DNA of 64,000 nucleotides from positions 78,077 through 142,076 of the forward strand of contig JAYZXF010000017.1 of assembly GCA_036141575.1 (NCBI GenBank). Reading direction: 5' to 3'. Position 1 is the stretch's first letter, and the number at the start of each line of letters is the position of its first letter. This stretch comes from Pseudomonadota bacterium. GTDB taxonomy: Bacteria > Pseudomonadota > Alphaproteobacteria > UBA2136 > JAPKEQ01. The notes under the pieces are model-generated. The model made no database searches and was not told the DNA's origin. It was given only the letters and a program-made list of their open reading frames with translations. Below, one piece after another: positions 14,156 through 60,676 of this stretch. Both the position numbers and the translations under genes were made by a program.

Positions 14156-14177
14156 AAGCCCCCTGTGTTGGGGGCTT
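14156..14177 (+). terminator. rho-independent terminator
   Basis: AAGCCCCC-tgtgtt-GGGGGCTT followed by TTT. Confidence 0.8.
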
Positions 14178-14827: not shown

Positions 14828-14843
14828 ATGAATCGAACACAAC

Positions 14844-14867
14844 AAAGCCTCCCAAATGGGAGGCTTT
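14844..14867. terminator. bidirectional terminator
   Basis: AAAGCCTCCC-aaat-GGGAGGCTTT. Confidence 0.8.
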
Positions 14868-14886
14868 GCTTTATCGATGAAAAGAG

Positions 14887-15465
14887 TTACATGCGGAAGC
14901 GGGTTGCTTCTTTCACTGTGCCGTAGACCCATTGGAACCACATGATGCCAGCCAGAGCCGGCAGAACCCAGTCCATTTCATTGGTGATAGCGTCAGCATG
15001 AACATGGCCAGATGCGGTGGTCAGCCAAAAGGCAAACAAGCCTGCCATCAGGTAGAGCTCATTGGGCTCCATGGCACGCACGGCGGTAATTGCACTGGTA
15101 AGCGCAATGGCGCCAATCCAGATCATAGCAAAGATACCAGCGTTTCCGAAGGTGTTCAGCATGTAGCCAGTACCAAAGTAACCTGCAACACTGATCGCGA
15201 TGGTCAGCAAAAAGCGCAGGCCCAGATTCTCCAGACGGGTAATCTTGGCAATCAGGCGGGCAGCACTGCCAACAACCCAGTCCCAGCCGATCAGAAAGAT
15301 GGTTGGAACCAGCTCGCCAGATGTTTTGTGGCTGGTGGTTGGGCGTTCTTCATCCAGTGTGGTATTGCCGACCAAACGGTCAAATAGGATGAACGCGCCG
15401 ATGATCAGGCCCACAAGAAGGAGCACAAAAAGGAAGGGGTTTGAGAAAATCACAACAGACCTCAT
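14887..15465 (-). CDS. polytopic membrane protein (192 aa)
   Basis: Five or six hydrophobic helices. TTGACA-17-TATACA promoter-like sequence upstream. Shares terminator 14844-14867. Confidence 0.6.
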   Translation of the reverse strand: MRSVVIFSNPFLFVLLLVGLIIGAFILFDRLVGNTTLDEERPTTSHKTSGELVPTIFLIGWDWVVGSAARLIAKITRLENLGLRFLLTIAISVAGYFGTGYMLNTFGNAGIFAMIWIGAIALTSAITAVRAMEPNELYLMAGLFAFWLTTASGHVHADAITNEMDWVLPALAGIMWFQWVYGTVKEATRFRM

Positions 15466-16745: not shown

Positions 16746-16994
16746 ATGTCGAATCTTTGGACCCTTGTTGAAAAACAAGAAGCCCGTGCCACAAACCCCA
16801 ACCGTACCCGCGCTGAAGAACTGATCAGCCATGGCCAAAAAACGGGGCGCCTGTCCAACTCGGACTACCGTGACCTGAAGAGCGCACTGCGTTCTGGCAA
16901 TCTGTGCTATGAAGATTTCGGTGTTCACAAAGGCAATGTGAATGACTGGAATGCACGCTGGATGGGCGAAAACGGCTGTGGTCCTCGCGACTAA
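16746..16994 (+). CDS. hypothetical small protein (82 aa)
   Basis: ATG preceded by 'acggagga'. GC-rich relative to flanks. Terminator 17017-17042. Confidence 0.5.
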   Translation: MSNLWTLVEKQEARATNPNRTRAEELISHGQKTGRLSNSDYRDLKSALRSGNLCYEDFGVHKGNVNDWNARWMGENGCGPRD

Positions 16995-17016
16995 GCTGTG
17001 CGTAATCGAAAAAAAG

Positions 17017-17042
17017 AACCCCGTAGCTTATGCTGCGGGGTT
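17017..17042. terminator. bidirectional terminator
   Basis: AACCCCGTAGC-ttat-GCTGCGGGGTT (one G-U pair). Confidence 0.75.
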
Positions 17043-17055
17043 TCTTCTTGTCGTT

Positions 17056-17580
17056 TTATTTTCCGCGCACGTGAATGATGCGGATAATGGATGTGTCGCT
17101 CAGATCAGAGACATCGCCAAGCGACATGACTTGGCGCCGAATGAGGTTTCGAAGAAGTTCTTCTTCTTTATAGCTCACATCAATGAAAGGGTTGTGGCTG
17201 CTTCCAGCTTTGAAAAAAGTGCCGCCATATTGGTTGTCTTTGAGGGCAATATAAAAATATTTATGAGTCGCCGATTTCAAAAACTTCATTTCTTCAGATG
17301 TAAAGGGCACCAGTTCAATGCCGTTGTCCTTAGATTTTTCTGCCATGGCTTGCATGTAGCTTTTACCCTCTACCACACGGCAGATATTGGGTTTAAGTGC
17401 GCTATAGCCAGCGTTAATGACATCGCACAGTGCTTGCCACTCTCTCGGCGGAATGGGTTTAAGTTCATCGCCTTTGTGGGCATCGCGGTAATAACCGTGC
17501 TCTTCATTCACAAAGTAGAAACGCTGATGCGTATAAATGCGGGCGTAAACCAAAAGGGCGTCGTTGTTGAGTCGTTTCAT
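17056..17580 (-). CDS. hypothetical protein, 'WQxLC' paralog family (A)
   Basis: ATG at 17580 (MKRLNNDAL...) with GGAG upstream. Motif 'REWQALCDVI'. One of three tandem paralogs. Confidence 0.6.
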   Translation of the reverse strand: MKRLNNDALLVYARIYTHQRFYFVNEEHGYYRDAHKGDELKPIPPREWQALCDVINAGYSALKPNICRVVEGKSYMQAMAEKSKDNGIELVPFTSEEMKFLKSATHKYFYIALKDNQYGGTFFKAGSSHNPFIDVSYKEEELLRNLIRRQVMSLGDVSDLSDTSIIRIIHVRGK

Positions 17581-17676
17581 GGAGAGGCTCCAGAGAAAAA
17601 GAAAATCAAAGATATGAGTTGCCTTATTTTTACAAGGAGTAGAGAGGCTTGGCAAGGTGTTTCCTGCAAAACAAAA

Positions 17677-17692
17677 CAGCCCCGAAGGGCTG
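17677..17692 (-). terminator. rho-independent terminator
   Basis: CAGCCC-cgaa-GGGCTG. T-run on the minus strand. Confidence 0.7.
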
Positions 17693-17703
17693 TTTAGGTT
17701 CGT

Positions 17704-18276
17704 TTATTGGTCCCAGTAGACCCGCTGGTGCGGTTCTTGGCTCCAATAGTCTTCAAATGTGCCACCTGTATGGAGCAGGCCACGTTTGACGAGCTGCTGA
17801 ATGCCTTGTATCTCTGTGGGAGAAAGCTGGCTTTCGCGACGGCGAGGGGAACCTTCCTCTACCTCATAAAACCAGTGATAAATGCCCGTTTCCGGCTGAA
17901 AAATGAGAGCGCTTGCTTCACGGTGCTGAATGGCACGCAGAAGAGGAATCACGTTCTGTTCTTCTTTGCTGAAGGCGCGAGGGGTCACAAATGGTTCAGG
18001 GTTTGCGTGGATATAGTTCCCCAAAATAACCTGAAAAAGGGGCAGGCCTTCTACGTAACGGCCTTTTGTTGAGAGGGTTGTGAGTGCGTTACAAGCAAAG
18101 GCTTCGCACAGCACTTGCCAGTCTCGCAGGCTAATAGCAGGCAGTTTGGATTCACCAAGATGACCCTGCTTTTTAGGCTGGTTGATGTAAACGCCATGTG
18201 AGACTGTGATGAAGAATTGAACATCCATCTCATGGATGCGCTTCACCATTTCAGCAACCGCTTGAGATTGAGACAT
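17704..18276 (-). CDS. hypothetical protein, 'WQxLC' paralog family (B)
   Basis: ATG at 18276 (MSQSQAVAEM...). Motif 'RDWQVLCEAF'. Own terminator 17677-17692. Confidence 0.6.
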   Translation of the reverse strand: MSQSQAVAEMVKRIHEMDVQFFITVSHGVYINQPKKQGHLGESKLPAISLRDWQVLCEAFACNALTTLSTKGRYVEGLPLFQVILGNYIHANPEPFVTPRAFSKEEQNVIPLLRAIQHREASALIFQPETGIYHWFYEVEEGSPRRRESQLSPTEIQGIQQLVKRGLLHTGGTFEDYWSQEPHQRVYWDQ

Positions 18277-18364
18277 GTGAGATCCTTTCAGAAAAGGGAG
18301 GGAGATGTAAGATGTTGGGATTGTATTCAGTTTGGTGGTGTTATGCAAGTACACAAATGAAAAA

Positions 18365-18380
18365 CAGCCCCGAAGGGCTG
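18365..18380 (-). terminator. rho-independent terminator
   Basis: The identical CAGCCC-cgaa-GGGCTG hairpin. T-run on the minus strand. Confidence 0.7.
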
Positions 18381-18392
18381 GTAATAATCGCT

Positions 18393-19121
18393 TCAATCAT
18401 CTGCCGTCCAGAACGAAAAGATGCTCTGAGCTTCGAGGTGATAGTAAGGGGTCTTTTCACCAAGGGTGACAACGCCTTTATCAATCAGGCTTTGTAGAAT
18501 GACCATTTCATTCTCATCAAAGTCAAGCTCAACGCCCCAGTCGCCTGCAAACCAAACACCATGGTAGGGTTTGTTGTCTCTCCATTTATGGATCAGGCAG
18601 CAGGCATTCATATGCTCTGATGTAGAGTAAGCGTCATGGTCTTCCATGAGGTGAGAGGTGTCTTCGCCTGCATCCTCTGCGGCGTAGTACTCCTTAATGC
18701 ACCCCCGCTTAACATGCTGACCAGCAGGGAAGTGCCGTACGCGCGGGCCTGCGCCTGTCATGGCTTTAAGGAGCATGATCTCATCATTGCTGAGAGCTGT
18801 TGGCGAGGCTGGAGGCGGCGTTTCGGGCCTGTCGAGCGCGGACGCCTCAAGAATTTGATAGAATGTGGCGCCTTGCTCTTTCATGAGGCTAAGCTTCCAG
18901 TTACTATTTAAATGGGCGCGACCATCAGAGATGATTTTGCAGAGAAACTGCCACTCTTCAAGTGTAACGGGGAGTAGGTCGTCTTCATTGACGGGCACAT
19001 TTTCTTGGGTGTTCTGTGCAGCAAGTTTATATGCTCTTGTGTCTGACACAAAGTAGTAGCACAGCTGTTTTTCAATGCTGGCAACAATGTACTCTTCAAG
19101 GGCGATGCCTGAAAGTTTCAT
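18393..19121 (-). CDS. hypothetical protein, 'WQxLC' paralog family (C)
   Basis: Motif 'EEWQFLCKII'. Own terminator 18365-18380. Confidence 0.6.
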   Translation of the reverse strand: MKLSGIALEEYIVASIEKQLCYYFVSDTRAYKLAAQNTQENVPVNEDDLLPVTLEEWQFLCKIISDGRAHLNSNWKLSLMKEQGATFYQILEASALDRPETPPPASPTALSNDEIMLLKAMTGAGPRVRHFPAGQHVKRGCIKEYYAAEDAGEDTSHLMEDHDAYSTSEHMNACCLIHKWRDNKPYHGVWFAGDWGVELDFDENEMVILQSLIDKGVVTLGEKTPYYHLEAQSIFSFWTADD

Positions 19122-19257: not shown

Positions 19258-20031
19258 ATGGCATACCACATTACCATCTTCACACAAGATAACACCAGCA
19301 GAGGCGGGCGTCATTTTAAGATCCGTAAACCTTTGTTTTGGATATGCTTAATGCTGTTTTTGGTGCTGCCATCTCTGGCGCATTACACAATTATTTTCCA
19401 CATTATGCCAACGTACGCCGTTAAAAAGGCGCAGGGTATGGAAGAAGAGATTACAGGCCTAGCCAGTGGTGTATATACTCTGGAAGAAGAGAACACTCTT
19501 CTAAAGGCGAGGCTCAAGAGCATTACAACAGAGCTTGAAGAAGAGCAGGCTGTACGTAGTGAGCTTGCAGCCCGCATTGCCATTGCTGAAAATGCGCGTT
19601 CATCTTTTGCCAATAAAGCCCAGCAGCTTGAGCAAGAAGTGATTGATCTACGTGCCAGCACCAAGTTTTACGAAGATATTCTAAACCCATCAGAAACAGT
19701 GGGTGAGCTTCAATGTTATAACATTACCACCAGTCTGAATAAGGGAACGCTTAAGTATGGCGTCAATTTCCTCCATCAAAACCAGAACAATACAACGTCT
19801 AAAAAATATAAAATTGTTGTCAATGTGATGAGTGGTGTGAAAGCATCAGATCTTGAAAATATGGAAATTCAAGACGGCGATGATGTGAAAGAAGTGAAGT
19901 TCAAGAAGTCTTACACAATGAAGGGCAGTCTCGATGTGACTTTGCCTGATAATAAGCTCCGCATGCTTGATGTGCGTGCTTACAAAGATGGGACAAATGA
20001 GCTTGTCGGTCATTGCTGGAAAGCTTTCTAG
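19258..20031 (+). CDS. membrane-anchored coiled-coil protein
   Basis: First ATG in ORF 19240-20031. One TM helix ('LFWICLMLFLVLPSLA') then a heptad-rich segment. The start is uncertain. Confidence 0.55.
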   Translation: MAYHITIFTQDNTSRGGRHFKIRKPLFWICLMLFLVLPSLAHYTIIFHIMPTYAVKKAQGMEEEITGLASGVYTLEEENTLLKARLKSITTELEEEQAVRSELAARIAIAENARSSFANKAQQLEQEVIDLRASTKFYEDILNPSETVGELQCYNITTSLNKGTLKYGVNFLHQNQNNTTSKKYKIVVNVMSGVKASDLENMEIQDGDDVKEVKFKKSYTMKGSLDVTLPDNKLRMLDVRAYKDGTNELVGHCWKAF

Positions 20032-20140: not shown

Positions 20141-20345
20141 AAGAAGTCTTCGTGGTGCTTCATAAACGAGTGCGTAGTGAAGCGGAGCCAAAACCTTAAG
20201 AGGTTTTGAGCGGTTTAAAGCATTTAAAAATAAGGCGGAGCATTATTTTTGAAAGTAAGGGGTTTAAACCAAGACCATGCTTTGCGAGTTATCGCCTTTT
20301 TGGAGCAGCGTAGCGAATGAAAAAAGCGAGAACATGAAGCAAAGA
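20141..20345. repeat. structured intergenic repeat family, copy A
   Basis: Roughly 80% identical by eye to B 58370-58545 over about 180 nt. Hairpin 20188-20208. Confidence 0.75.
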
Positions 20346-20467
20346 ATTAAGAAATCTCTGATTGGAATTTATCCGCATATTTGCTATATTAAGAAGGTTA
20401 AGGGACGCGCATTCTGTAGCGTTCTTGGGGAAAAATAACAATTATAATGCGTTAAGGGAAACACTTC

Positions 20468-24934: not shown

Positions 24935-25015
24935 TTTGTTTGACGTTACATGAGTGGCTCGCTATGTTGAAATCAATTCTGATCTCTTATCTTTTGTTTT
25001 CAAGGAGTTTTTCTG

Positions 25016-25381
25016 ATGCAGTTTTCACTTCCTCAGAAGATTAAATTCGCACTTTTTGACCGTAAAGGCAAAAAGGCGGCTAAACGTATCCAAGTGTTGT
25101 GTGAGACAACAATGGATTTGTATAAATCTGGCCCGGGTCATGATAAGGGCATGTTCTTCGTTATGAGTACTATGGGTTTATCTCATGCTGTTGCTGTGCT
25201 GAGAGCTCGCTTTGGTGATGATGAATCCTTGCGTATGTTACGTGCCCAGAGCTATGCCATTGACGGTGATGATGTGGACAAGATTATTGCCACCTTGGAC
25301 GGTGTAAAAGAAGGTAATGCGGAGCGTGAGGCCATTGTGATAAACCTGACGTTTTTGCGTAGTGCCTTTAATGGGCAGTAA
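25016..25381 (+). CDS. hypothetical protein (121 aa)
   Basis: ATG with 'aaggag' upstream. Its stop overlaps the next start (TAATG). Confidence 0.5.
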   Translation: MQFSLPQKIKFALFDRKGKKAAKRIQVLCETTMDLYKSGPGHDKGMFFVMSTMGLSHAVAVLRARFGDDESLRMLRAQSYAIDGDDVDKIIATLDGVKEGNAEREAIVINLTFLRSAFNGQ

Positions 25382-26485: not shown

Positions 26486-26818
26486 ATGCTACTCACAACA
26501 ACACCTTATGTTGAAGGTTACACCATTCGCCGTTACGGCCCAATGGTAGCCAGTGAAGCGGTCATGGGTACCAACCTGTTTAAGGATTACTTTGCAAAAG
26601 TACGTGATATTGTTGGTGGACGCTCTGGTGCGTTCCAAAATGCTCTTGCAGATGCGCGTGAATCTATTCTTCATGAAATCCAAGTGCAGGCTCAGCAATC
26701 TGAGTGTAACGCCATTATCGGTATTGATATTGACTACGGTGAGGTATCAGGTGGTGATAAGACAATGCTTCTTGTTGCTGCAACAGGTACAGCGGTTTAC
26801 ATTGAGCCGATTACTTAG
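26486..26818 (+). CDS. ybjQ: YbjQ/UPF0145 family protein
   Basis: 'TTTPYVEGYTI...VVGGRSGAF...NAIIGIDIDY...LLVAATGTAV' follows the UPF0145 pattern. Confidence 0.8.
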   Translation: MLLTTTPYVEGYTIRRYGPMVASEAVMGTNLFKDYFAKVRDIVGGRSGAFQNALADARESILHEIQVQAQQSECNAIIGIDIDYGEVSGGDKTMLLVAATGTAVYIEPIT

Positions 26819-26827
26819 TTTTTTGTA

Positions 26828-27100
26828 GCTTGCTTCCTGTCTTTTATTTTTCAAATATAAAATTTGTAAAATAAAATTCAACGCAAGCTAGAGTCTTGGT
26901 TTAAAACCTTCCTTGTAAAAACAGTACTCCGTCCTGCTTTTAGCTTTTTTAAACCGCCCAAAACGCCTGAACGTTTTGGTTCGGCTACTCGCCTCACACT
27001 CTCATAGGCCAACACTTCTATTGTGTCCTAGTACTTTGCGGAGCAAAGCGCAGCCGGCGCTTAAGGGCGCCGAGCGCAAAGGTACAAAGTAGGGTAAGCT
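26828..27100. repeat. structured intergenic repeat family, copy C
   Basis: Hairpin 26842-26876. Segment 26958-27040 is the reverse complement of B 58331-58409. Hairpin CCAAAACG/CGTTTTGG at 26958-26979. Confidence 0.75.
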
Positions 27101-27295
27101 GCAGAGCAGCCGTGCCTTTGCAAGATATAAATAAGGTGTTAAATGGCAGGCAGTGTGTCTGTGCGCAGGGCACCGCCTCAACCTGACAGGCCGAGAGTCA
27201 AGAAAGGAAAAAATAACCAAAACAGCTCTTGTCACTTAGGCAGATACACGTTAGTTTATTCCACATTCAAAAGTTTCAAAAATAAGGGATAAGTC

Positions 27296-30689: not shown

Positions 30690-30790
30690 AATGATCGCTT
30701 GCTCCACTTCCGTTGCTCATGTATCTCAAATACACTGCGCTACGGCTCTCGCAAGCCCTCATTTTCGCTCATGCCTACCATATTTTGAAA
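30690..30790. repeat. possible degenerate family copy (E) in the pntAB-pntB spacer
   Basis: 'gcttgctcc...tcaaata' and 'cgctacggctc' resemble copies C/D and B. Weak. Confidence 0.3.
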
Positions 30791-38656: not shown

Positions 38657-38724
38657 ACGGCGCCTTTAAGCGAAGTTTTATGGTATCTGTCTCGTGTTGT
38701 GATAATAAACTCTGCGCTCAGATT

Positions 38725-38890
38725 TTTCTTTGCTTGCTTTCCATCTTTTATTTTTCAAACATAAAGTCCAATGCAAGCTCTTGGAAAGCGTGAAGCATTC
38801 AACAGCATGGGCATTTTCAAGATAACCTTCACGGGGGCTATCATTTTACAAATTTTACATTTGAAAAATGATAGGGTGAGAGTGAAGAAG
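38725..38890. repeat. structured intergenic repeat family, copy D
   Basis: The left part resembles the left of copy C ('gcttgctttccatcttttatttttcaaacataaa'). Hairpin 38827-38887 is the reverse complement of the B hairpin, with different complementary outer stems. Confidence 0.7.
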
Positions 38891-38895
38891 AATAA

Positions 38896-40164
38896 CTATC
38901 TAAAATATCTACCCGCATGCAGTGTGAGGCCAACACCGACACTCCCAAACGCATCACCTGTTACCACATGTGCATGTGGAAAAGGCTCAAGCAGGGCTGC
39001 ACGAATCATTGGGAGTTTTGTTGAGCCACCAGTGAGGAATACGCTTGAAATTTGTTCGGCTGTCACGCCTGCATCATCAAGAGTTTCCTGTACTGTACGC
39101 TGCAATGAGTCACACGAATCAGACAAGCTCGGGCGAAGGTGATTGTTGTTTGTTACAGGAACACTTAGGCCTTTTTCAACAAAGTTCATATCAAGAATAT
39201 TCTCATCAGATGCAGACAGGGCAATCTTGGTTTCTTCAACCTTCATGGCCAGCGTGTGGCCGCTTTCATCCTCAAGAACGTTCAAATAGCGTTCAAGCTT
39301 GTCAGGGTCTAATGCATGGTTGAGTGTGTCTTCAACAAGGCGTACTGTCTTTTGGTTATACAGCGTGTGAATTTTTGGCCATGTCGCCAGCGTAAAGAAC
39401 AGCCATGGCGCAATTTCAATATCTTTATCAGAAAACGGTGCACGCATAAGGCCTTTATGACCAAGCTCAGGCATTGCACACATCAGGCTGAGAGCTTTAT
39501 CAAAGTCTGTACCACCAATATGTACACCGTGGTTAGAAAGAATGTCTTCTGAGCGGTTCTCTTTGTGTTTATGCTCTGGTGACAGGCGAATCACTGTAAA
39601 GTCAGACGTACCACCGCCAAGGTCAATAATCAGAGCGAGTTCTTCTTTCTTGAGCGTATCTTCGTAAGTATAAGCAGCGGCCAGAGGCTCAGGCAGGAAG
39701 GTTACATCTTTAAAGCCTGTGCTTTTTACAATCTCTTCCAGCATGTTTTGCGCCTCAGCGTCAGCCTTAGCGTCCCCATCAATAAAGAAGACCGGTCGAC
39801 CAATAGTTGCACGCGTGAGCTCTTCACCTGCGGTGGTGTCTACATGCTTTTTAATGTCGGCAATAAAGCTCCCAAGAATATCTGTAAAGGCAACTTGGCG
39901 GTTTCCAATACGTGTGCTTTCACGGGCAAGGTCTGTCCCTAGAATACTTTTAAGAGCGCGCATAAAGCGTCCATCATCCCCGCGTGTGTAGGCTTTTACA
40001 GCTGATCGACCAAAGCTTCTTGTGCTGTCATCATCAATAAAAATGGCACTCGGAATAGTGTTTTCATCGCCTTCCAAGTTACAAAGTGTTGCTGTGCCGC
40101 CTGTGAATAGGCCTGCTGTTGAATTGGATGTGCCGAAATCAATACCGCAAACTGGGGACGTCAT
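38896..40164 (-). CDS. Hsp70-family actin-like ATPase (YegD-like)
   Basis: Phosphate-1 'GIDFGTSNS', phosphate-2 'IIDLGGGTSDFTVI', and adenosine motif 'VFLTGGSTKLPMI'. No substrate-binding domain. Confidence 0.85.
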   Translation of the reverse strand: MTSPVCGIDFGTSNSTAGLFTGGTATLCNLEGDENTIPSAIFIDDDSTRSFGRSAVKAYTRGDDGRFMRALKSILGTDLARESTRIGNRQVAFTDILGSFIADIKKHVDTTAGEELTRATIGRPVFFIDGDAKADAEAQNMLEEIVKSTGFKDVTFLPEPLAAAYTYEDTLKKEELALIIDLGGGTSDFTVIRLSPEHKHKENRSEDILSNHGVHIGGTDFDKALSLMCAMPELGHKGLMRAPFSDKDIEIAPWLFFTLATWPKIHTLYNQKTVRLVEDTLNHALDPDKLERYLNVLEDESGHTLAMKVEETKIALSASDENILDMNFVEKGLSVPVTNNNHLRPSLSDSCDSLQRTVQETLDDAGVTAEQISSVFLTGGSTKLPMIRAALLEPFPHAHVVTGDAFGSVGVGLTLHAGRYFR

Positions 40165-40188: not shown

Positions 40189-40527
40189 ATGGAAACTATC
40201 AAAGTTTCAGGCGTTTGTCATGAGAAAGTTCTTAAAAACGGTGAAGACTTCTTCTTTGAAGTGCCCAAGCACCCTGCCAACAAAATGTTTGCAGATCGCT
40301 TGCAGCACCTTGGCTTTGAGCGTTCCCCTCTGATTGCTCATGACGATTGTGATCGGTTCTATATGCCTGAAGGCACAGACTTGGCGCAAGTCACGCTGGA
40401 ATATCAGGAATACTTCAAAGCTGGCGAAGCGCCGACACCAGCCATTGTTCCACTGGGGCACTTGTCGCCCACGGTACAGGATAAGTCTCGTGGTATGGAT
40501 GTCGAAGACTGGCCGCCTGAGAATTGA
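40189..40527 (+). CDS. hypothetical protein (112 aa)
   Basis: First ATG of ORF 40165-40527. Terminator 40545-40571. Confidence 0.45.
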   Translation: METIKVSGVCHEKVLKNGEDFFFEVPKHPANKMFADRLQHLGFERSPLIAHDDCDRFYMPEGTDLAQVTLEYQEYFKAGEAPTPAIVPLGHLSPTVQDKSRGMDVEDWPPEN

Positions 40528-40544
40528 TTTGAAAACGAAAATAA

Positions 40545-40571
40545 AGGCACCCCGTCAGAAACGGGGTGTCT
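40545..40571 (+). terminator. rho-independent terminator
   Basis: AGGCACCCCGT-cagaa-ACGGGGTGTCT followed by TTATTTTT. Confidence 0.75.
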
Positions 40572-40624
40572 TTATTTTTGTGGGGGACTCATAAACCTTT
40601 AAGGTTGTAAGGGAGGTTCCTGTA

Positions 40625-41143
40625 ATGGGAGAAACTTTAGGCTATATATCACTTATCCTTTATGTAGTCGCATTATTATTTCATAAGCCACGCCATAGCT
40701 TTATTTGCTTTATTATCGCGAATCTCTTCTTTATTGCACAATGTATTGTTTCAGAAATGTATGTTGCAGTTATGGGACCTATTGGGCTAACAGCTCTTAC
40801 TGTCTTTATTTTAAATGTTAAGAAGAAAAATTGGACTGCTTATGTAAAAGGTTATGCAACTTTTACTGTATGTGTTGGGGTGTATTTTGCGTCTAGTGTA
40901 AGTGAGTATATTGTTGTAAGTGCTATGTGTATAGATGCTCTATCTCGCCTAGGTAGAGACCATTTTTACCTATTTAGAACCTTGTCTTCTTTAGGAAATA
41001 TACTATGGTTTACATCTTTTTACATAGAGGGAGTAACTTCTATTATGTTGATGAGCGCTTTGATGGTTTCTTTAAATGTGATTTATATGGTCAGACATGC
41101 GTTGAGAGATGAGGTGCTCTTTAAGCAAAAGGTAAATGAATAA
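40625..41143 (+). CDS. polytopic membrane protein in an AT-rich segment
   Basis: Five hydrophobic helices. 60-nt lines hand-counted at 27-37% GC. Confidence 0.55.
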   Translation: MGETLGYISLILYVVALLFHKPRHSFICFIIANLFFIAQCIVSEMYVAVMGPIGLTALTVFILNVKKKNWTAYVKGYATFTVCVGVYFASSVSEYIVVSAMCIDALSRLGRDHFYLFRTLSSLGNILWFTSFYIEGVTSIMLMSALMVSLNVIYMVRHALRDEVLFKQKVNE

Positions 41144-41268
41144 AAGCATGAGATGTTTTTGCACCTCTATTCAATTTGAAAACATTTATTTTAGAGTGAG
41201 ATACCTGTAAGTTTTATATTTATAGTATACTACATAAATAGATGTAAACGTTTATGAGGTAATTTTTT

Positions 41269-42108
41269 ATGAGGTTATTTGCAATTGTATGTATGTGTTG
41301 CGCACTGTTTGTCAGTGTGGCAGCCGTTTCTCAAACACGTGCAGGTGAAGGACTTTCACGCCAACTTCAATCTGTAAAATCAATGCTTGAGAGTTTCCGT
41401 AGCCATATAGATGGTGAAATCGCTCGTGTGGATAGTGAAATTAATACAGTGGATAGCAGAGTAGATGCTGCAAATACTAGAATGGATACCATGGACGGTC
41501 GTATGGATGGTATAGACACTCAGATTGGTGGCCTAAACTCGAGTATTAATTCACACGATAACCGTATTACAGCCCTAGAAAATGGGGAAACAGGTGTGCA
41601 AGTTTACAGAAACTGTGCACAACGTAATGTGACATGGGGCAGTGGAAATTGCCGAGGTACGCAGGGGCCCATTCCTCATGGCACAAGTATAACGGTTAGA
41701 GACACCGTTCAAGGTGATATTTGTACAAATAGATATCAATATGTTGGCTATGCTGTGTATAGTTGTAATGATGGTGTGGTAACGCGTAACGGGCAAGCTT
41801 GTCAGCGAACAGATTTCTACAATGAAAATCTATGTGAATCTGGCAGTGGTGGCGATAGCTATGCAAACTGTCAAGGTACAACAAGGACATGGTCAGAAAC
41901 GTATAATGGTCTAACTTCAACCTGTTCTGGATCAATTGGTTCTGTGCCACATGGTACAACCGCTACAGCAACAGACCCTAGAACTGGTTGTGACCGTCGA
42001 GACTTCACAGGTGGATCATCGACTTGGCTATGTGATAATGGTACTCTCAGAAGACAAGGTACTGCAACATGTAGAACCTGGGGCAGCTGGGGTAGCGACT
42101 GTCGATAA
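41269..42108 (+). CDS. secreted coiled-coil family member with 2 x 4-Cys modules (F3)
   Basis: Signal peptide, 'GEGLSRQLQSVKSMLESF', an Lpp-like repeat 'VDSEINTVDSRVDAANTRMDTMDGRMD', and Cys modules at 41614-41802 and 41869-42072. Ends in 'DCR'. Confidence 0.75.
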   Translation: MRLFAIVCMCCALFVSVAAVSQTRAGEGLSRQLQSVKSMLESFRSHIDGEIARVDSEINTVDSRVDAANTRMDTMDGRMDGIDTQIGGLNSSINSHDNRITALENGETGVQVYRNCAQRNVTWGSGNCRGTQGPIPHGTSITVRDTVQGDICTNRYQYVGYAVYSCNDGVVTRNGQACQRTDFYNENLCESGSGGDSYANCQGTTRTWSETYNGLTSTCSGSIGSVPHGTTATATDPRTGCDRRDFTGGSSTWLCDNGTLRRQGTATCRTWGSWGSDCR

Positions 42109-42288
42109 TTGAATAAATGAAAGCAGAAAAGGAGGGCACATGCCCTCCTTTTTGCAACAGGGGATATATTTATTTTTCTTGAAGTATCAATGTATTGCAA
42201 TTTTTACTCACCTATTTGTCAGGGATATGTTTATTTAAAGTTGTGGTTATATATATAAATAAAATGTGATTTATAAAAGGGGTTTAAA

Positions 42289-43374
42289 ATGAGAGCTTTT
42301 CCGATAGTAATGATTTTATCCTGTTTAGTTTTACTAACAGGCGTAGCTGGTGCGCAGAGCACGCGCTCTGGTGAAGGTATTGCAAGGCAGTTAATGTCTG
42401 TTAAAAGTATGATTGAAAATTTTGCTGATAACATCCGCACACGTGTGCAGACCGTTGAAAATGAAATGGATGCGGTAGAAACACGTATGGATACAGTGGA
42501 AGCTGATGTTGCAAGCGTACTTGCAACCGTTGCAACACATGAAACACGGTTGAGCTCGCATGATTCATCTCTATCTGGCCATGGTCGCCGTATTCGAGCA
42601 CTCGAAGAGCGCGAGCCAACAGGTGGTGGAGGTAGTACAGCACCAACACCAAGTGCGTGTAACGGTAGAAACATGTCATGGGGAGGGGGATGTAGTGCTT
42701 ATGTACAATCTCTACCTGATGGGGGTGCTGTCGTTCTGAGAGATCAAGTTGCTGGTGATGTATGTACAAATAGACAGCAGTATGTTGGTCAAGTTCGTGT
42801 GGCTTGTAACAATGGTCAAATTTCTACAAAGAACGCCTCTTGTGAGCTGAGAAACGTTTATAACGCAACTCAGTGTAGTGGTGGCACAACACCAACACCG
42901 AAGAAGAGATGTGCAGCAAAAGATGTGAGCTGGAAGAACAATGCTGGTACAGTCACATGTCGTGGTAGAATTGTTGCAGCTGATCATGATTCAACACGTC
43001 GTGTAACATTTGATAACAACAATACAAAACCTGGTGGAAAACGTATTACTGGTGCAGCAAACTTTATTTGTGACAACGGTGTGTTCAAACGTACATCTAA
43101 GAACTGTAAAGAAACTGTTAACCCTGAGCCTCCTAAGCCTTGTGCAGGCAAGTCTGTGAGTTGGACTAGTAATGGTGTTACATGTCGAGGAACTGTTTCG
43201 AATACGCCACATGGTTTAACTTCAAGTGTAACAGACCCTAACCGAACACGAGAGTGTGAGAACATTATAGATACAACAGGTAGCGCAAGCTTCAGGTGTA
43301 CAAATGGATCGTTCAAGAAGGTCTCTGGCTCTTGCAGGCAGGTACGGAGTCGTCGAACAGGTGACTGTCGATAA
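42289..43374 (+). CDS. secreted coiled-coil family member with 3 x 4-Cys modules (F4)
   Basis: Signal peptide, 'GEGIARQLMSVKSMIENF', a coiled coil, and three Cys modules between 42658 and 43335. Ends in 'DCR'. Confidence 0.75.
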   Translation: MRAFPIVMILSCLVLLTGVAGAQSTRSGEGIARQLMSVKSMIENFADNIRTRVQTVENEMDAVETRMDTVEADVASVLATVATHETRLSSHDSSLSGHGRRIRALEEREPTGGGGSTAPTPSACNGRNMSWGGGCSAYVQSLPDGGAVVLRDQVAGDVCTNRQQYVGQVRVACNNGQISTKNASCELRNVYNATQCSGGTTPTPKKRCAAKDVSWKNNAGTVTCRGRIVAADHDSTRRVTFDNNNTKPGGKRITGAANFICDNGVFKRTSKNCKETVNPEPPKPCAGKSVSWTSNGVTCRGTVSNTPHGLTSSVTDPNRTRECENIIDTTGSASFRCTNGSFKKVSGSCRQVRSRRTGDCR

Positions 43375-43434
43375 GGACTCTATAAAAGAAAGCGGCGCAA
43401 GAGCGCCGCTTTTTTGTAACTCGAACGGCTCGCT

Positions 43435-43992
43435 TTATTTACATGGATCTGATGAGTAAGAACAAACTGGATTAGAAATAACAAAGTCACCATTACGACA
43501 AGTTACTGTAGCAGAGCCTGAAATATGGTTACCACAACGTGGGCGTGGGTGGGTAACTGTTGCAGTATCACCTTCATTGGCACCCCATGCAGTACTTGTA
43601 CATGTTGGATTACCATAGGCACCAGTCCATTGCACAGGTCTGCTTGTACAGCCAGACACTGTTCCAGAGCTGCCTGTCATATCATCGTGGGAAACGCAGC
43701 CTCGTCCATCTGCATCTGGGTGTGTTGGCCAGTGAATGCTTGGATCACCAGATGTATTGATACATGCTGTTCGTTGGTTCTCTCGTGTTTCAAGATTTGT
43801 TACACTGTTTTCAACGTTTGTCATGCGGGGTCTCATATCATTTGCAAATGCTTCCATCATATTTTTAAGAGATGTAAGCTGTCTGCTGATACCTTCACTT
43901 GTACGTGTCTGTGCATCAGAGTTAGAAATAACGATGAGGGATGCTGTTGTGAGAATTGCCGTAAAAATGAGGCAAGATTTTTTCAAATTCAT
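43435..43992 (-). CDS. secreted coiled-coil family member with 1 x 4-Cys module (F5)
   Basis: Signal peptide, 'SEGISRQLTSLKNMMEAF', loop 'CINTSGDPSIHWPTHPDADGRGC', and one Cys module. Ends in 'DPCK'. Confidence 0.72.
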   Translation of the reverse strand: MNLKKSCLIFTAILTTASLIVISNSDAQTRTSEGISRQLTSLKNMMEAFANDMRPRMTNVENSVTNLETRENQRTACINTSGDPSIHWPTHPDADGRGCVSHDDMTGSSGTVSGCTSRPVQWTGAYGNPTCTSTAWGANEGDTATVTHPRPRCGNHISGSATVTCRNGDFVISNPVCSYSSDPCK

Positions 43993-44104: not shown

Positions 44105-45106
44105 TTATTGAGGTTCACCATTATGCTCTTTAGAGAGTGGGTATTTTCCTTTTTTGTCTGGAATAGAGCCGTGGACAAGAATACCGTTTGCATAGTAAGT
44201 GTGGTCACCATCTAGCATAAGGTTGTAGAGGCGGCGGTCTTCTTCTTCCTGTGGGACAATCATGATGGATTCAATAAGCTGACGCTTGCCTTGTGCCATA
44301 ATGAGTGTTTGGCCAATTTCAAGCTGACCAATGTTACCAGAAAGTTGGTCGTAAGCTTCTTTCTCAGCCATATCTGGGTTAAGGGCCTTCCAGCCGTCTG
44401 TTGTCATAAGAGGGTGGTTATCTGTTGTAAAGGCAGTTTCACCGTTAATCTCAATAAGGTGCTGGTTTTTACCTTTGCGCAGAAGAGGGCGGTCAAGGTC
44501 TAGCACGGTGTTAATTGCACCGTCACGGCCCATCAGCTTATCACCAATTTTAACTTTATGAATTTCAAGGTCACTACCATCCGCCATAAGTACTTTTGTT
44601 TCAGCCGTAAAGCATGAGCCGCGGCAAACTGCTGCACAATTTTCCATACTATTAGGCGTTAGGTTTGTATTACAGCGGCAGGCACATCTCCACCCCACCC
44701 AAACTTGGTCGCTTGGGCATGTAGGAGGCGTGTAGGTGCCACCACCTGTTGGGCCTTCAATATCTGTATGTGTTACACAGTTATTGCTATCAGCATCTGG
44801 ATGGTTTGGCCAATACAGGCTTGTTGTTGATCTGTTATGGCAGAACGTTTGCCTATTAATAACTGTCTGGAGGTCTGAAATATCCGTTTGTGCTGTTGAG
44901 AGCTGTGTTTCTAGAGTGCTAATTCTAGAGCTCATGCCAGTAGACATGCTTTCCATCATGTTTTTAAGGGAGAGAACTTGCCTTGAAAGTGCTTCACCCG
45001 CACTTGTTTGTGCCCATACATTGGCAGCTAAAATGATTGTGCAAAGAGAGAGAAAGATTGCAATGGATTTAAGTATTTTACCCTTGAAAAACATAGTGGC
45101 CACCAT
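44105..45106 (-). CDS. secreted coiled-coil family member with C-terminal Hint/BIL domain (F6)
   Basis: 'AGEALSRQVLSLKNMMESM', loop 'CHNRSTTSLYWPNHPDADSNNC', then Hint blocks 'CFTAETKVLMADG', 'TTDNHPLMT' and 'HTYYANGILVHGS'. The start is at 45106 or 45094. Confidence 0.75.
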   Translation of the reverse strand: MVATMFFKGKILKSIAIFLSLCTIILAANVWAQTSAGEALSRQVLSLKNMMESMSTGMSSRISTLETQLSTAQTDISDLQTVINRQTFCHNRSTTSLYWPNHPDADSNNCVTHTDIEGPTGGGTYTPPTCPSDQVWVGWRCACRCNTNLTPNSMENCAAVCRGSCFTAETKVLMADGSDLEIHKVKIGDKLMGRDGAINTVLDLDRPLLRKGKNQHLIEINGETAFTTDNHPLMTTDGWKALNPDMAEKEAYDQLSGNIGQLEIGQTLIMAQGKRQLIESIMIVPQEEEDRRLYNLMLDGDHTYYANGILVHGSIPDKKGKYPLSKEHNGEPQ

Positions 45107-57305: not shown

Positions 57306-57329
57306 AAAGCCACCCCGAAGGGTGGCTTT
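57306..57329. terminator. bidirectional terminator after tpsA
   Basis: AAAGCCACCC-cgaa-GGGTGGCTTT. Confidence 0.8.
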
Positions 57330-57342
57330 CTTTTTATATCGC

Positions 57343-58062
57343 TTACGCCGCCTGAGCGTGCATGCTGTCGAAGTGTTCTTTGCGCAGATATTCCAGCAGC
57401 GGCCCGAAGACGTGGTCTCCATAGGTCGTGCGGTTCTCTGAGTTGGAACGGACGGCATCGTGCACCAGATGGCAAGCTTCCAGGCGTGCTTGGACGTGAG
57501 GCTTGCGATCTTTGGCGTTGTAGATGCACTCATCATCAGAGCTCAACTGTTGTGTGTAACGGCTGTAAGCCGTCATCACGAAGTTGAAGCGCTGACGCAT
57601 CATGTACGACATCATGGGGTTGGCCAGATGCACCATGGCATCAGCAACCCAGTCGGCGAACATGAAGGGAATGGTGTGGTCGTTGCGGCTGATCAGGTTC
57701 TCGTACTTGTCGAGGTGTGCGGCCATGGCGGCATCAACGCGTTTCTGTTCAGCAAGCAAGCGCGCCCGACGGGTGTCTTCATTCTCTTGCATGTCATCTG
57801 CAATTTGTGCGCAGATAGCATTGGAGAGGGGAGACGGGGTTGGCACCACAGTGGGCATCGACAGCCGGCGCAGTGCGGCCATGATTTGGCGTTTGGTATT
57901 ATCCGGAACGCTCATGGCGTTATAGAACACTTCAACACCGTAGTAGGTGAAGGTTGCGGTGTTCTCCGGCAACTGCGTAACAGCCTGTTTGGCTTCCTCC
58001 AGAAGTTCATCCAGAGCGCGCTGAGTTTGGCCGTAGCCAGACCAAAGTTTCATGAGAGCCAT
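57343..58062 (-). CDS. hypothetical protein (239 aa), GC-rich
   Basis: Long ORF with a GGAGG-type RBS ('caggaggccgct' before the ATG). A 60-nt line hand-counted at 57% GC. Confidence 0.55.
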   Translation of the reverse strand: MALMKLWSGYGQTQRALDELLEEAKQAVTQLPENTATFTYYGVEVFYNAMSVPDNTKRQIMAALRRLSMPTVVPTPSPLSNAICAQIADDMQENEDTRRARLLAEQKRVDAAMAAHLDKYENLISRNDHTIPFMFADWVADAMVHLANPMMSYMMRQRFNFVMTAYSRYTQQLSSDDECIYNAKDRKPHVQARLEACHLVHDAVRSNSENRTTYGDHVFGPLLEYLRKEHFDSMHAQAA

Positions 58063-58159
58063 AGCGGCCTCCTGTGTCTAAAGTGAAGTTAAAGATAGTT
58101 CTAGTGAATAAATTATGGTGATGGTGAGGTGTTTATTCAAGATGTGTTGTTTTTTTACT

Positions 58160-58545
58160 CTTCACTTTCATTCCACCATTTTTCAAATTTAAAATTTGTA
58201 AAATGGTGGACCCCGTGAAGTAAGTCTTGGTGCGCAAGTTTTTAAGTATTTTAGGTCTGCTTACATCCCTAAAATAGCTCTTGTGCACCGCCGTAGCGTC
58301 TGAACGCTACGGCTCGCTTTTTCAGCTCGCGAAGTACTAGGAGATAACAGAGATATTGGCCTGATAGAGTGTGAGGCGAATAGCCGAGCCAAAACCTTAA
58401 GAGGTTTTGAGCGGTTTGAAGCAGTTAAAAATAAGACAGAGGATTATTTTTACTATAAATGCTTTAAACCAAGACTGTACTTTGCGGGCTATCGTCTTTT
58501 TGAAGTAGTGAAACGAATGAAAAAAGCGAGAGCGTAAAGCAAAGA
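58160..58545. repeat. structured intergenic repeat family, copy B (longest)
   Basis: AT-rich hairpin 58173-58209 inside the outer stem CTTCAC/GTGAAG (58160-58220). Hairpin GCCGTAGCG-tctgaa-CGCTACGGC. Hairpin 58389-58409. Internal 9-bp inverted repeat 58223-58231 / 58468-58476. Homologous to copies A, C and D. Confidence 0.8.
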
Positions 58546-58601
58546 GAGAAAAAGAGAGTCTAGGAAGCGCCAAGGTGCAGGCTTGATCTCCAACATATAA
58601 A

Positions 58602-58626
58602 AAAGCCACGCAATTGGCGTGGCTTT
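58602..58626 (-). terminator. terminator after the DEAD-box helicase
   Basis: AAAGCCACGC-aattg-GCGTGGCTTT. Confidence 0.8.
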
Positions 58627-58645
58627 TTCTGGGGTTTAGGAACCG

Positions 58646-60676
58646 TTAGTTAAACACAGCAGTTGGGCCTTTGGCACCTGTGCCGCCTTTAAAACGTGCT
58701 TTTTTGAAAGCTGCGTTTGAGCCAGCGCCTTTGCTACCTTTAAAGCTACCGCCTTTGCCCTTAAATGGCTTGTTGCCAGCAGATGAACGATCATCGCCAT
58801 CACGCTTATTGAAGCCACCGCTCATGCGCTTACCAGCTGGTGTACCGCGTCCGCGTGTACCGTAAGTGCGTGCGCCATCATCCTTTTTGAATGGGCTCTT
58901 TTTACGTGTTGAGTCTGTTTGCGTCATGCGCTTCTTCTGCTTGTCGTGCATTTTAGCTGGTGCGCGAGACTCACTGCGATCTTCTCCGAAAGAACGGTTA
59001 CCATCGCGGTCGCCGAAGCTGCGCTTCTTGTCGCCGTAAGAGCGGTTACCATCGCGGTCGCCAAAGCTGCGCTTCTTATCGCCGAAAGAGCGGTTACCAT
59101 CGCGGTCGCCAAAGCTGCGCTTCTTGTCGCCGAATGAACGGTTGCCATCACGGTCACCAAAGCTGCGCTTCTTGTCGCCGAATGAACGGTTGCCATCGCG
59201 TTCGCCAAAGCTACGCTTCTTGTCACCGTATGAACGGTTGCCATCACGGTCACCAAAGCTGCGCTTCTTGTCACCGTAAGAGCGGTTGCCATCGCGGTCA
59301 CCAAAGCTACGCTTCTTATCACCGAAGTCGCGCTTGTTACCAAACTCACGCTTGTCGCCAAAGTCGCGCTTTTCAAATGAACGCTCACCATCTTTACGGA
59401 AGCTCTTACGCTCGCCGTCTTTTTTGAATGAACGTCTGTCATCTCTATCGCCGAAGCTACGCTTCTTATCGCCGTATGAATCACGGTTACCATCTTTAGC
59501 GCCGTAGCCGCCTTTGCGGTGTGATTTTGCCTTACGATCTTGGAATGTACGCTCTTTGCGAGGCTTAGATGTTGGTGCGTTAGATGTTTCACCACCCCAT
59601 ACAAGGCGTTCAATTGCTTTCCACTTGCCGTTTTCTTTCTTGGTAATGTACGCCAGAGCGTGACCCGTAGCACCGGCACGTGCTGTACGGCCAATACGGT
59701 GGATGTAATCTTCTGGGCATTGTGGAAGGTCATAGTTAATCACGTGCTGAATGTGAGGAATATCAAGACCACGTGCCGCAACGTCTGTTGCCACAAGGAT
59801 TTGGTATTTCTCTTTTCTGAATGCATCTGTTACGCGCTCACGTTTGTTGTGACGAAGGTCACCGTGGATTGCAGCTGCTTTAAAGCCTTCTTTCTTCAGC
59901 TTATCAGCCATGCGCTCAGTGCCGTACTTTGTCTTTACGAACATGATGATTGAGCCTTCACGGCCTGAGAGTTCACCAAGCAGGTCGTCGTACTTCTCAG
60001 CATCAGTCACGCGTTTTGTTTGGTGATCAATGTTTTCAGCAGGCTTTGTTGTTGCGCCAATGGCAATACGCTCAGGGTTGTTGAGGTAGTTCTTCGCAAG
60101 AGACATGATGTTCTTTGGAAGTGTTGCACTAAATAGAAGCGTTTGGCGCTCGGCTGGCATGTGGCTCACAATTTCTTCAATCTGAATGCTGAAGCCCATG
60201 TCGAGCATGCGGTCTGTTTCATCAAGAACCAGGAAGTGGCAGTTGTTAAGCTTGAGGCTGCGACGGTTCAGGTGGTCGTTAATACGGCCTGGTGTACCAA
60301 CAATAATACGTGGACGGAATGAAAGGCTTTTCAGCTGTTTGTGCATAGAGTCACCACCAATAAGTAGGCATGTGTTAATGCCAGAGCGGTGAGGGAGGAA
60401 GCCTTTAATGTTGTCTTGTACCTGCGCGGCAAGTTCACGTGTTGGTGTCACAACAATAGCTGTGTCTTCTTCGTTTTCAAGGAGGTGGTTCACCATCGGA
60501 ATACCGAAAGCACCTGTTTTACCCGTACCTGTTTGGGCAGAACCAAGGATATCGCGACCTTGCATCGCGAAAGGAATTGTTTTTTCTTGAATTGGAGTTG
60601 GAGATTCAAAACCCAGTTTTGTTAGGGCATGAGTCAAATCTTCAGAAAGCCCAAGTTGGGCGAATGTTTGCGTCAT
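58646..60676 (-). CDS. DEAD-box RNA helicase (RhlE-like) with repetitive basic C-terminal tail
   Basis: Q-motif 'GFESPTPIQ', motif I 'AQTGTGKT', motif II 'DETD', 'SAT', and 'HRIGRTARAG'. The tail has 7 x 'GDKKRSFGDRDGNRS[YF]'. Confidence 0.92.
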   Translation of the reverse strand: MTQTFAQLGLSEDLTHALTKLGFESPTPIQEKTIPFAMQGRDILGSAQTGTGKTGAFGIPMVNHLLENEEDTAIVVTPTRELAAQVQDNIKGFLPHRSGINTCLLIGGDSMHKQLKSLSFRPRIIVGTPGRINDHLNRRSLKLNNCHFLVLDETDRMLDMGFSIQIEEIVSHMPAERQTLLFSATLPKNIMSLAKNYLNNPERIAIGATTKPAENIDHQTKRVTDAEKYDDLLGELSGREGSIIMFVKTKYGTERMADKLKKEGFKAAAIHGDLRHNKRERVTDAFRKEKYQILVATDVAARGLDIPHIQHVINYDLPQCPEDYIHRIGRTARAGATGHALAYITKKENGKWKAIERLVWGGETSNAPTSKPRKERTFQDRKAKSHRKGGYGAKDGNRDSYGDKKRSFGDRDDRRSFKKDGERKSFRKDGERSFEKRDFGDKREFGNKRDFGDKKRSFGDRDGNRSYGDKKRSFGDRDGNRSYGDKKRSFGERDGNRSFGDKKRSFGDRDGNRSFGDKKRSFGDRDGNRSFGDKKRSFGDRDGNRSYGDKKRSFGDRDGNRSFGEDRSESRAPAKMHDKQKKRMTQTDSTRKKSPFKKDDGARTYGTRGRGTPAGKRMSGGFNKRDGDDRSSAGNKPFKGKGGSFKGSKGAGSNAAFKKARFKGGTGAKGPTAVFN
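58988..59323 (-). repeat. 7 x 48-bp in-frame tandem repeat inside the helicase gene
   Basis: Units 58988-59035, 59036-59083, and so on to 59276-59323, each encoding GDKKRSFG[DE]RDGNRS[YF]. Degenerate relatives extend to about 59500. Confidence 0.9.

Follow-up and report, generated by a model that had tools for sequence, protein, structure and literature searches.

We analyzed a stretch of 64,000 nucleotides from a Pseudomonadota bacterium (GenBank assembly GCA_036141575.1, contig JAYZXF010000017.1, positions 78,077 to 142,076), hereafter the window, in which a preliminary description had singled out a structured intergenic block, block B, at positions 58160-58545. This block is one insertion of two inverted copies of a hairpin-rich non-coding repeat of about 215 bases. 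Its true extent is 58124-58560, i.e. 437 bases, slightly wider than first delimited. The best reading is that the block is a mobile DNA repeat and not a new RNA gene. More precisely, we give a probability of roughly 0.65 to a new family of non-autonomous DNA repeats, resembling the MITEs (miniature inverted-repeat transposable elements), that would be mobilized in trans in an uncultivated proteobacterial lineage.

One repeat unit in several arrangements

The preliminary description had proposed a real, non-coding, and highly structured repeat family, and this is borne out by BLAST of the window against itself, nhmmer, a covariance model (CM), and folding. Its picture of a mosaic of modules gives way to one repeat about 215 nt long: all the modules collapse, in these searches, into this one unit, present in both orientations, and modules 1 and 2 are the hairpins P5 and P3 of the inverted left unit of block B. 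The anatomy of the unit was drawn from an alignment of the copies in the window with copies fetched from other genomes. In order, it includes a 5' core (..GGCCTGATA-GAGTGYGAG), a mini-hairpin GGC-GAATA-GCC, the motif GAGCC, the hairpin P3 with its TTAAGR loop, the motif GAGCGG, the long hairpin P4 (GGTTTAAAGCA...TGCTTTAAACC, with a variable tip), a CCAAGAY motif, the hairpin P5, and a purine-rich tail with a final C. P5 has a 6-bp outer stem around an inner hairpin, and module 1 is one of its types. The basic unit occurs as monomers, as head-to-head pairs with a central TA, and as fragments. Units measure 160-221 nt and have a G+C content of 36-44%, against 45.5% for the window. Stop codons in all six frames exclude a small protein.

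The two arms of block B are diverged units with heads together and tails outward, centered on a TA common to both (58338-58339). The junction around this center, GTAC-TA-GGAG, recurs in two other dimers, one at locus C and one at the locus A site in the sister-strain contig L020. The right unit, wBR (58340-58560, plus strand), is full length (CM 189 bits, E = 2e-33). It contains the mini-hairpin at 58375-58385, within the conserved 5' core GAGTGYGAG..GAGCC, P3 at 58389-58409, P4 at 58413-58470 (GGTTTGAAGCA..TGCTTTAAACC, with the variable tip), P5 at 58480-58544, with the outer stem CTTTGC/GCAAAG and an inner hairpin of the beta type, and the purine-rich tail at 58545-58560, whose last base is C. 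This P3, with its TTAAGR loop, is the former module 3, CCAAAACC-ttaaga-GGTTTTG, which is present as quoted. The left unit, wBL (58124-58337, minus strand), has a short "L-type" head, GTACTTCGCGAGC..GCGAGCC (nhmmer E = 1.8e-8; CM 141 bits, E = 2e-24); a profile search places this diverged minus-strand unit at 58145-58348. Its P5 (58160-58220, minus strand) is an outer stem CTTCAC/GTGAAG around an AT-rich inner hairpin, just as module 1 had been given (CCACC...GGTGG at 58173-58209, inside arms at 58160-65 and 58215-20). Its P3 (58290-58313, minus strand) belongs to the GC-rich P3 class and is module 2, GCCGTAGCG-tctgaa-CGCTACGGC, again found as quoted. Relative to dinucleotide shuffles, the folds of the arms as single-stranded DNA (ssDNA) have z = -8.6 (right) and -8.0 (left). 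The 9-bp inverted repeat AGTCTTGGT/ACCAAGACT (58223-31 / 58468-76), proposed earlier to close a large domain, is where it was placed, but it consists of the CCAAGAC motifs of the two inverted arms rather than of a domain-closing helix.

BLAST of the window against itself ties block B to 20168-20345, 26819-27056, and 38723-38895, with E values from 1e-39 to 1e-4. With E values from 1e-34 to 1e-3, the three search methods agree with the preliminary description on copies A (20149-20353, plus strand), C (26815-27021, minus strand), and D (38719-38847 on the minus strand and 38770-38900 on the plus strand, both partial). A fifth tentative copy, E (30690-30790), is missed by BLAST, nhmmer, and the CM, and is put down to chance: a match such as its shared 11-mer should arise at random some 12 times in a sequence as long as the window. 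Copy A is a monomer, wA (20149-20353, plus strand), upstream of a bactofilin gene. Locus C is made of unit wC (26818-27028, minus strand), which ends on the G in the TAG stop codon of a YbjQ-like gene, and of an internally deleted second arm (27031-27131, plus strand), where an L-type head and P3 are followed by a P4-like stem, CAAGAT, and a tail. The locus has TA dinucleotides at its center (27029-30) and on its flanks (26816-17 and 27132-33). Locus D consists of two partial units inverted relative to each other: D' (38719-38800, minus strand), with only P5, which has a deletion in its inner hairpin, and the tail, and D (38817-38896, plus strand), with CAAGAT, P5, and the tail, whose terminal C38896 provides the G of the TAG stop of an Hsp70-like gene. 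In total, the 64 kb hold four family loci, and about 17 distinct copies were found over all loci examined. As previously noted, the copies lie in different gene contexts. They are present in both orientations within the window, and their orientation relative to the neighboring genes is mixed.

The ends of the units are less constant than their interiors. The 5' and 3' ends of the monomers L020p and L021b are unrelated and have only the terminal G...C in common. The arms of dimers are inverted, yet their final 10-20 nt are unlike each other. Close to locus D, L020 has 78 nt more than the window (19530-19607, opposite window position 38676/38677), with TTTATG direct repeats at the edges. This insert holds a piece like the CCAA-TACTTTGCG segment of the unit, which suggests, from the sequence, nested or fragmentary insertions near this locus.

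Probable insertion at TA dinucleotides

The most direct evidence of mobility comes from sites that are filled in one strain and empty in another. We compared the window with syntenic DNA of sister strains, about 95-96% identical to it (L007, L020, L025, L026, and L021), and with 21 kb of synteny in a congener, L023, at about 79-87% identity. At locus B, a sister strain has the same flanks and a different inner segment. Removing 58124-58562 from the window leaves GGTGA-TG-GGAAGCGC, whereas the sister contig L007 reads GGTGA-TA-GGAAGAGC. The match between the excised window and L007 shows that the B dimer (58124-58560) is a discrete insertion at a TA. Its left flank, TG (58122-58123), is a TA with one change and its right flank is TA (58561-58562); they are the two halves of a putative target duplication. 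The sister strain has a degenerate family member of its own (L007 9723-9910, minus strand) at a distance of about 12 nt from the empty B site. This member has the same 5' core and TTAAGA loop, but its P3 is GC-rich (GCCGGC/GCCTGC) and its 3' part differs.

Three further comparisons are available. A unit of about 215 nt lies between the stop of one pnt cistron and the start of the next in L021 only, being absent from the window and from L020. L020 alone has a unit of about 165 nt upstream of pntA, with no counterpart in the window or in L021; this site has one TA when empty and a TA on both sides when filled. Finally, the site of locus C is empty in L023, where it reads GAGC-TA-AGCC. TA (or TG) is thus found on both sides of the unit at 4/4 filled sites and as a single TA at the empty ones, with one imperfect case and an ambiguous junction for L021b. 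The search for target-site duplications suggested in the preliminary description as a test of a MITE origin therefore gave TA flanks and pairs of filled and empty sites, with a duplication that rests on four sites, one of them imperfect. Locus A varies in another way: it holds a monomer in the window and a different inverted dimer in L020 and L026. When orthologous copies are resident in several strains, they differ by 0.7-3.2%, not above the surrounding genome, and have no clear compensatory pattern.

The variation at loci A and B could also be expected if the repeats were DNA structural sites kept by the host, as in BIME or RIME, for a nucleoid protein, gyrase, or a regulator, and spread mainly by recombination or gene conversion. 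The symmetric, strictly Watson-Crick palindromes are in line with this, as are the operator-like appearance of the AT-rich palindrome ATTTTNCAAAT/ATTTGNAAAAT, the different members that one intergenic site can have in sister strains, and the partial units in mosaic arrangements. However, we regard such host sites as quite improbable given the clean filled and empty states of site B, with flanks that rejoin precisely at TA, the insertion within an operon, the lack of any member over the 21 kb of synteny in the congener L023, and the presence of the family in other metagenome-assembled genomes (MAGs).

Stop codons provide a further line of evidence. Four independent tails (wC, wD, L007b, and L020A1) run exactly up to the stop of a convergent gene, which is TAG in 4/4 cases. 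Since only 17 of the 73 stops in the window are TAG, the probability of four out of four by chance is about 0.003. Two of these genes have an ortholog in L023, and the orthologous codon is TAA in both (2/2). Together, TAG at the tails and TAA in the orthologs form the pattern predicted by an insertion between TA and A, where the terminal base of the element gives the G. If a unit went into the TA of a TAA codon, its end, ...C|TA, would remake a TAG, and insertions on TAA stops would hence be tolerated. The ends of Correia elements also create stop codons.

Helix conservation as DNA or as RNA

The minimum-energy folds of 11 units have one architecture in spite of their differing stem sequences. 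The preliminary description had reported covariation in module 1, with the outer pairs CCACC/GGTGG, CTATC/GATAG, and TTTTA/TAAAA in different copies; this is correct, and compensation extends to the family in general, far beyond what is found in shuffled alignments. In a MAFFT alignment of 10 units, over 32 pairs of the mini-hairpin, P3, and P4, 87.6% of the cells are paired (71.2% after shuffling) and 22 of the 32 pairs have double-sided changes. None of 500 shuffles reaches the observed value on four of five measures, the remaining one, the count of pair types, being reached by 126/500. Shifting the 3' partners by 1-3 columns lowers pairing to 29-52%. A larger alignment of 24 distinct copies, which was fitted to the CM and is thus biased toward the structure of the model, gives 91% of cells paired against 69% in shuffles, 27/32 pairs with double changes, and 0/500 on all five measures. 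The individual helices follow the same trend. All three pairs of the mini-hairpin covary, with the forms GGC/GCC, ACC/GGT, and GCC/GGT, and the pair of P3 next to the loop is seen in all four Watson-Crick forms. In the P5 domain of the module 1 type, the outer helix is 100% paired, with 4/6 pairs compensated. The curated P5 outer stems are CTTTGC/GCAAAG, CTTCGC/GCGAAG, CTTCAC/GTGAAG, GCTTGC/GCAAGC, GCTCGC/GCGAGC, and TCTTGT/GCAAGA. A long-range helix predicted by RNAalifold (GUGYG with UGCG) was dropped, since the outer stem of P5, with which it competes, is well supported.

Extensive covariation over five helices, together with the conservation of loops (TTAAGR and GAATA), would also be expected of genes for structured non-coding RNA, or of RNA acting in cis as a small RNA (sRNA), an mRNA stabilizer, or a terminator, with the helices selected as RNA. 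Moreover, the copy inside the pnt operon is necessarily co-transcribed, and known repeats, ERIC and bcr1 among them, function as RNA or are conserved as such (PMC2229807, PMC3184786). Yet, helices that covary very strongly across a repeat family are no indication of an RNA on their own, and wobble enrichment and strand asymmetry can distinguish a constraint on RNA from one on DNA. Neither is seen here. Among the stem cells that are not Watson-Crick, 8 are G-T, 7 are A-C, and 32 are other combinations, i.e. there is no enrichment in wobble pairs. The minimum-energy folds have 37 G-U pairs on one strand and 36 on the other, and the plus orientation is the more stable in 8/11 units by a small margin, so that neither energy nor G-U content makes a clear difference between strands. 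With gathering thresholds, Rfam has no match in the whole window, and a search of 58060-58660 at E <= 10 gave nothing but noise, so the block corresponds to none of its known families. The units lack a conserved promoter or terminator, have mixed orientations relative to neighboring genes, and vary between near-identical strains. We thus consider selection as RNA improbable. The preliminary description had left open whether selection acted on RNA or DNA; of the two, the DNA-level constraint is retained. As the pairing has no RNA signature, the covariation speaks for hairpins constrained as DNA, or for a process at the DNA level that generates them, in a mobile element.

Several specific RNA candidates were rejected. 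The terminators beside the copies in MAGs L004 and L005, which might have delimited an sRNA gene, belong to adjacent genes. A guide RNA is disfavored, as unit interiors match their own flanks (7.6 nt) no better than those of other loci (8.3 nt). A group II intron, suggested by the 5' GAGTGYG, was discarded because the unit is too small and has no Intron_gpII or domain V match. As for an IS110 bridge RNA with a "CT core", the CT is missing at 2/4 empty sites and there is no excess of interior-flank matches.

A retro-mobile element copied through an RNA intermediate, as short interspersed nuclear elements (SINEs) are, would fit the purine- or A-rich 3' tails of variable length, several copies truncated at the 5' end (D, D', and the L-type arms), and the monomers devoid of terminal inverted repeats (TIRs). 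Nevertheless, there is no reverse transcriptase nearby and no promoter, some copies are truncated in 3' or internally deleted (L004 and the second arm of locus C), the TA flanks are constant where variable duplications would be expected, and pairing has no strand asymmetry. This makes a retro-element highly improbable.

Proposed mechanism and its weak points

The mechanism that we favor is a mobile DNA repeat of the MITE kind, moved in trans. An enzyme encoded elsewhere in the genome would move the units as DNA into TA targets, and TA would be duplicated, or apparently duplicated, on insertion. The units themselves would be selfish DNA. Their hairpins may be kept because the enzyme, or a transposition intermediate, needs folded DNA, in which case only copies with intact hairpins would propagate; alternatively, intrastrand templated repair may hold the arms complementary. 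Our leading guess for the enzyme is one of the IS630/Tc1-mariner type. Duplication of TA is a signature of these enzymes, and it is for this reason, with RUP and Correia as precedents, that we favor them. If this reading is correct, a set of odd intergenic blocks is explained as one selfish element that inserts on stop codons (TAA to TAG) and between the cistrons of an operon without destroying genes. It also accounts for the breaks in short-read and MAG assemblies of the lineage at these places, and offers markers at the level of strains in an uncultivated group where most proteins have no known domain.

Several observations weigh against this explanation. In agreement with the preliminary description, Pfam scans of the window and of the syntenic loci found no transposase nearby, and the 64-kb window and some 150 kb of related loci yielded neither a transposase nor an autonomous parent. 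More broadly, no transposase or reverse-transcriptase domain was seen in the window, in the gene tables of the syntenic loci, or in the genes adjoining the L004 and L005 copies. Monomers have no TIRs, and the last 10-15 nt of the tails, whose length ranges from 8 to 36 nt, are poorly conserved, which is unusual for the substrate of a DDE transposase. The TA duplication is drawn from four filled/empty comparisons, in which one TG stands for TA and the L021b junction has a discrepancy of 1-7 nt. Sites A and B hold different members in sister strains, and recombination or gene conversion between copies could be the source of these differences. Lastly, the five helices and the loop sequences are conserved across hosts to a greater extent than most MITE interiors.

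Termini and tail lengths that vary, together with the lack of TIRs in monomers, fit an IS630-type enzyme poorly and make a hairpin-recognizing single-strand transposase the main alternative. The same element would then be moved as ssDNA by an HUH/Y1 enzyme, in the style of IS200/IS605 and its palindrome-associated transposable elements (PATEs) or of REPIN/RAYT. Insertion would take place 3' of a short ..TA target, with the element bringing its own ..CTA at the right end and the "duplication" being only apparent, and the TA...TA flanks are equally compatible with this. Subterminal hairpins conserved by Watson-Crick compensation next to ends that vary, and the strong ssDNA fold of each arm (z about -8), are also in its favor. 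Against it, no Y1 or TnpB gene was seen, there is no REP-like GTAG/CGTC tag in units that are 5-10 times the size of a REP, the left and right hairpins are dissimilar, both orientations occur within 64 kb without strand bias, and no omega-RNA or IS605-type motif of Rfam matches. On balance, we find movement as ssDNA by this type of enzyme rather unlikely.

One can also conceive of a mobile element defined by structure and devoid of TIRs, whose active nucleic acid would be the 215-nt unit itself (length approximate), either as a folded single strand recognized by a novel enzyme or as a structured RNA that helps to direct its own insertion at TA, like a SINE or a bridge RNA. This would account for the conservation of helices and loops across hosts, for the exchange of whole stems that stay complementary, and for variable termini with purine-rich tails; the chances that we give to these two versions together are slim.

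Comparison with known repeat families

Repeats of the MITE kind in bacteria often have TA termini, target duplications, and stem-loops (PMC2229807). The unit shares with ERIC, bcr1, RUP, Correia, CIR, and RPE a small size, a non-coding nature, TA ends, variability between strains, and stable stem-loops (PMC2229807, PMC3184786, PMC10969869). Like ERIC (or IRU) and bcr1, it is intergenic and patchy among strains, with short terminal direct repeats (TA in ERIC) and stem-loops (PMC2229807, PMC3184786), and compensatory changes have been described in bcr1 (PMC3184786). Unlike them, it is larger (about 215 nt, 437 nt for the dimer) and has five separate helices instead of one long imperfect palindrome; there is no sequence similarity. 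In addition, the conservation of ERIC and bcr1 has been ascribed to RNA, whereas the pairing statistics of the unit have no RNA signature.

RUP of S. pneumoniae, which is linked to IS630-Spn1, and Correia/NEMIS of Neisseria are non-autonomous elements moved in trans that insert at TA with duplication (PMC2229807), as is proposed for the unit; RUP in particular is tied to IS630 and TA targets (PMC2229807). They differ from it by conserved TIRs of 9-26 bp and, for RUP, by a known parent insertion sequence (IS), while the unit has variable termini and no TIRs in monomers. CIR of Caulobacter and Brucella resembles the unit by its TA termini, its lack of TIRs, and its 5' and 3' halves that fold separately (PMC2229807). 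However, CIR, here compared by its description only, is about 110 nt long and exposes a GANTC methylation motif that is not conserved in the unit.

The palindromes, inverted doublets, mosaics, hairpins kept by compensation, and likely selfish spread of the unit recall REP/REPIN, BIME, and RIME. Yet, REPs are G+C-rich, 20-40 nt long, bear a GTAG/CGTC tag (PMC3733652), and adjoin RAYT genes, none of which applies to the unit. We conclude that it is not a REP or REPIN, because its size and composition are wrong and the tag is missing. Finally, the absence of TIRs, the subterminal hairpins, and the structured non-coding end are reminiscent of IS200/IS605 PATEs and of the guide-RNA scaffolds of TnpB and IscB, except that no TnpA, TnpB, or IscB gene was found, nor an Rfam match, nor extra complementarity of the unit to its own flanks. 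Elements of the IS200/IS605 type have a fixed tetra- or pentanucleotide as target, insert 3' of it and duplicate nothing, have similar subterminal hairpins at both ends, and have a strand bias. The TA flanks of the unit are compatible with this type; its end hairpins, however, are dissimilar, and both orientations occur.

In function, the unit is a MITE-like interspersed repeat that departs from classical MITEs in one trait, as it lacks conserved TIRs; no parent IS is known. Its unusual features are the five-helix unit, the replacement of whole stems with complementarity kept, the inverted dimers with a conserved TA center, and the probable rebuilding of stop codons. A literature search by accession numbers returned no paper, and the sequence family appears to be undescribed so far, while the kind of element is well known.

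Taxonomic distribution

The distribution of the family is patchy. When genomes of 185,579 species, one for each, were scanned with a pattern, only two other MAGs had the family, L004, labelled as Alphaproteobacteria ANT-120, and L005, labelled as Magnetococcales, the latter with two copies. There was no member in the 21 kb of L023, nor in the relatives L033 and L035 (63% identity of PntA). BLAST of block B in distant mode had no match in plasmid and phage collections, and scans of viral contigs with the module 3 and module 1 patterns gave 0 matches. The pattern of the CCAAGA region did have 43 matches in viral contigs, all in one unrelated conserved phage region where nhmmer finds no element, and the single match of the metagenome scan, L006, is due to chance.

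The 239-aa gene flanking block B has a homolog that is 97% identical on a 1.26-Mb contig of GCA_035092365.1; this contig and other strains were the source of the syntenic DNA compared with the window. A look-up of the exact protein found only short contigs, from Logan and MAGs, that end within the repeat. Indeed, several contigs end within repeat units: L001 and L003 at the equivalent of window position 58415, L013-L016, which start in wA, and L005, which starts at a unit. Such recurrent ends in short-read and MAG contigs indicate that the family is a systematic assembly breakpoint.

Other features of the window

The lineage is very sparsely covered in domain databases, and outside the clade no PntA comes closer than 63% identity. 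Most open reading frames (ORFs) in 1-5516, 7917-15465, 16942-19121, and 40189-43992 have no Pfam match at E <= 0.01 (e.g. 9/10 in one set). Some ORFs vary between strains. The strain of the window (L027) has a 281-aa paralog (12170-13015) of the gene at 8770-9582, with about 61% nucleotide identity, and a 190-aa ORF (17704-18276), both absent from L025 and L026, and the 121-aa ORF at 24945-25381 is absent from L020.

Two unlinked terminator-like hairpins (AAAGCCACCCCGAAGGGTGGCTTTC..., at 10223-10255 and 57306-57338) are 94% identical over 33 nt, and other terminator hairpins with GC stems stand at 5028, 17673, 18361, 24904, 32250, and 33842; they may be a second small class of repeats. Repeats are also found within genes. 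The DEAD-box helicase gene at 58646-60676 (minus strand) has, in its C-terminal part (58935-59510), 7-9 tandem repeats of 48 nt (16 codons) that are 73-93% identical. Three adjacent paralogous coiled-coil ORFs (41269-42108, 42289-43374, and 43435-43992), with weak matches to Baculo_PEP_C and DUF7310, have segments repeated between members (41698/42739 and 42347/43919).

The 333-aa protein encoded at 44105-45106 (minus strand) has Hint or intein-like matches (Hom_end_hint and PT-HINT) and no recognizable host extein domain. Finally, a 582-aa protein (5967-7715, minus strand) fuses an N-terminal Cro/C1-type helix-turn-helix with the catalytic domain of the RuBisCO large chain. It adjoins a homolog of the RuBisCO small subunit (5637-5951, minus strand), and the fusion is conserved in L025, L026, and L027.

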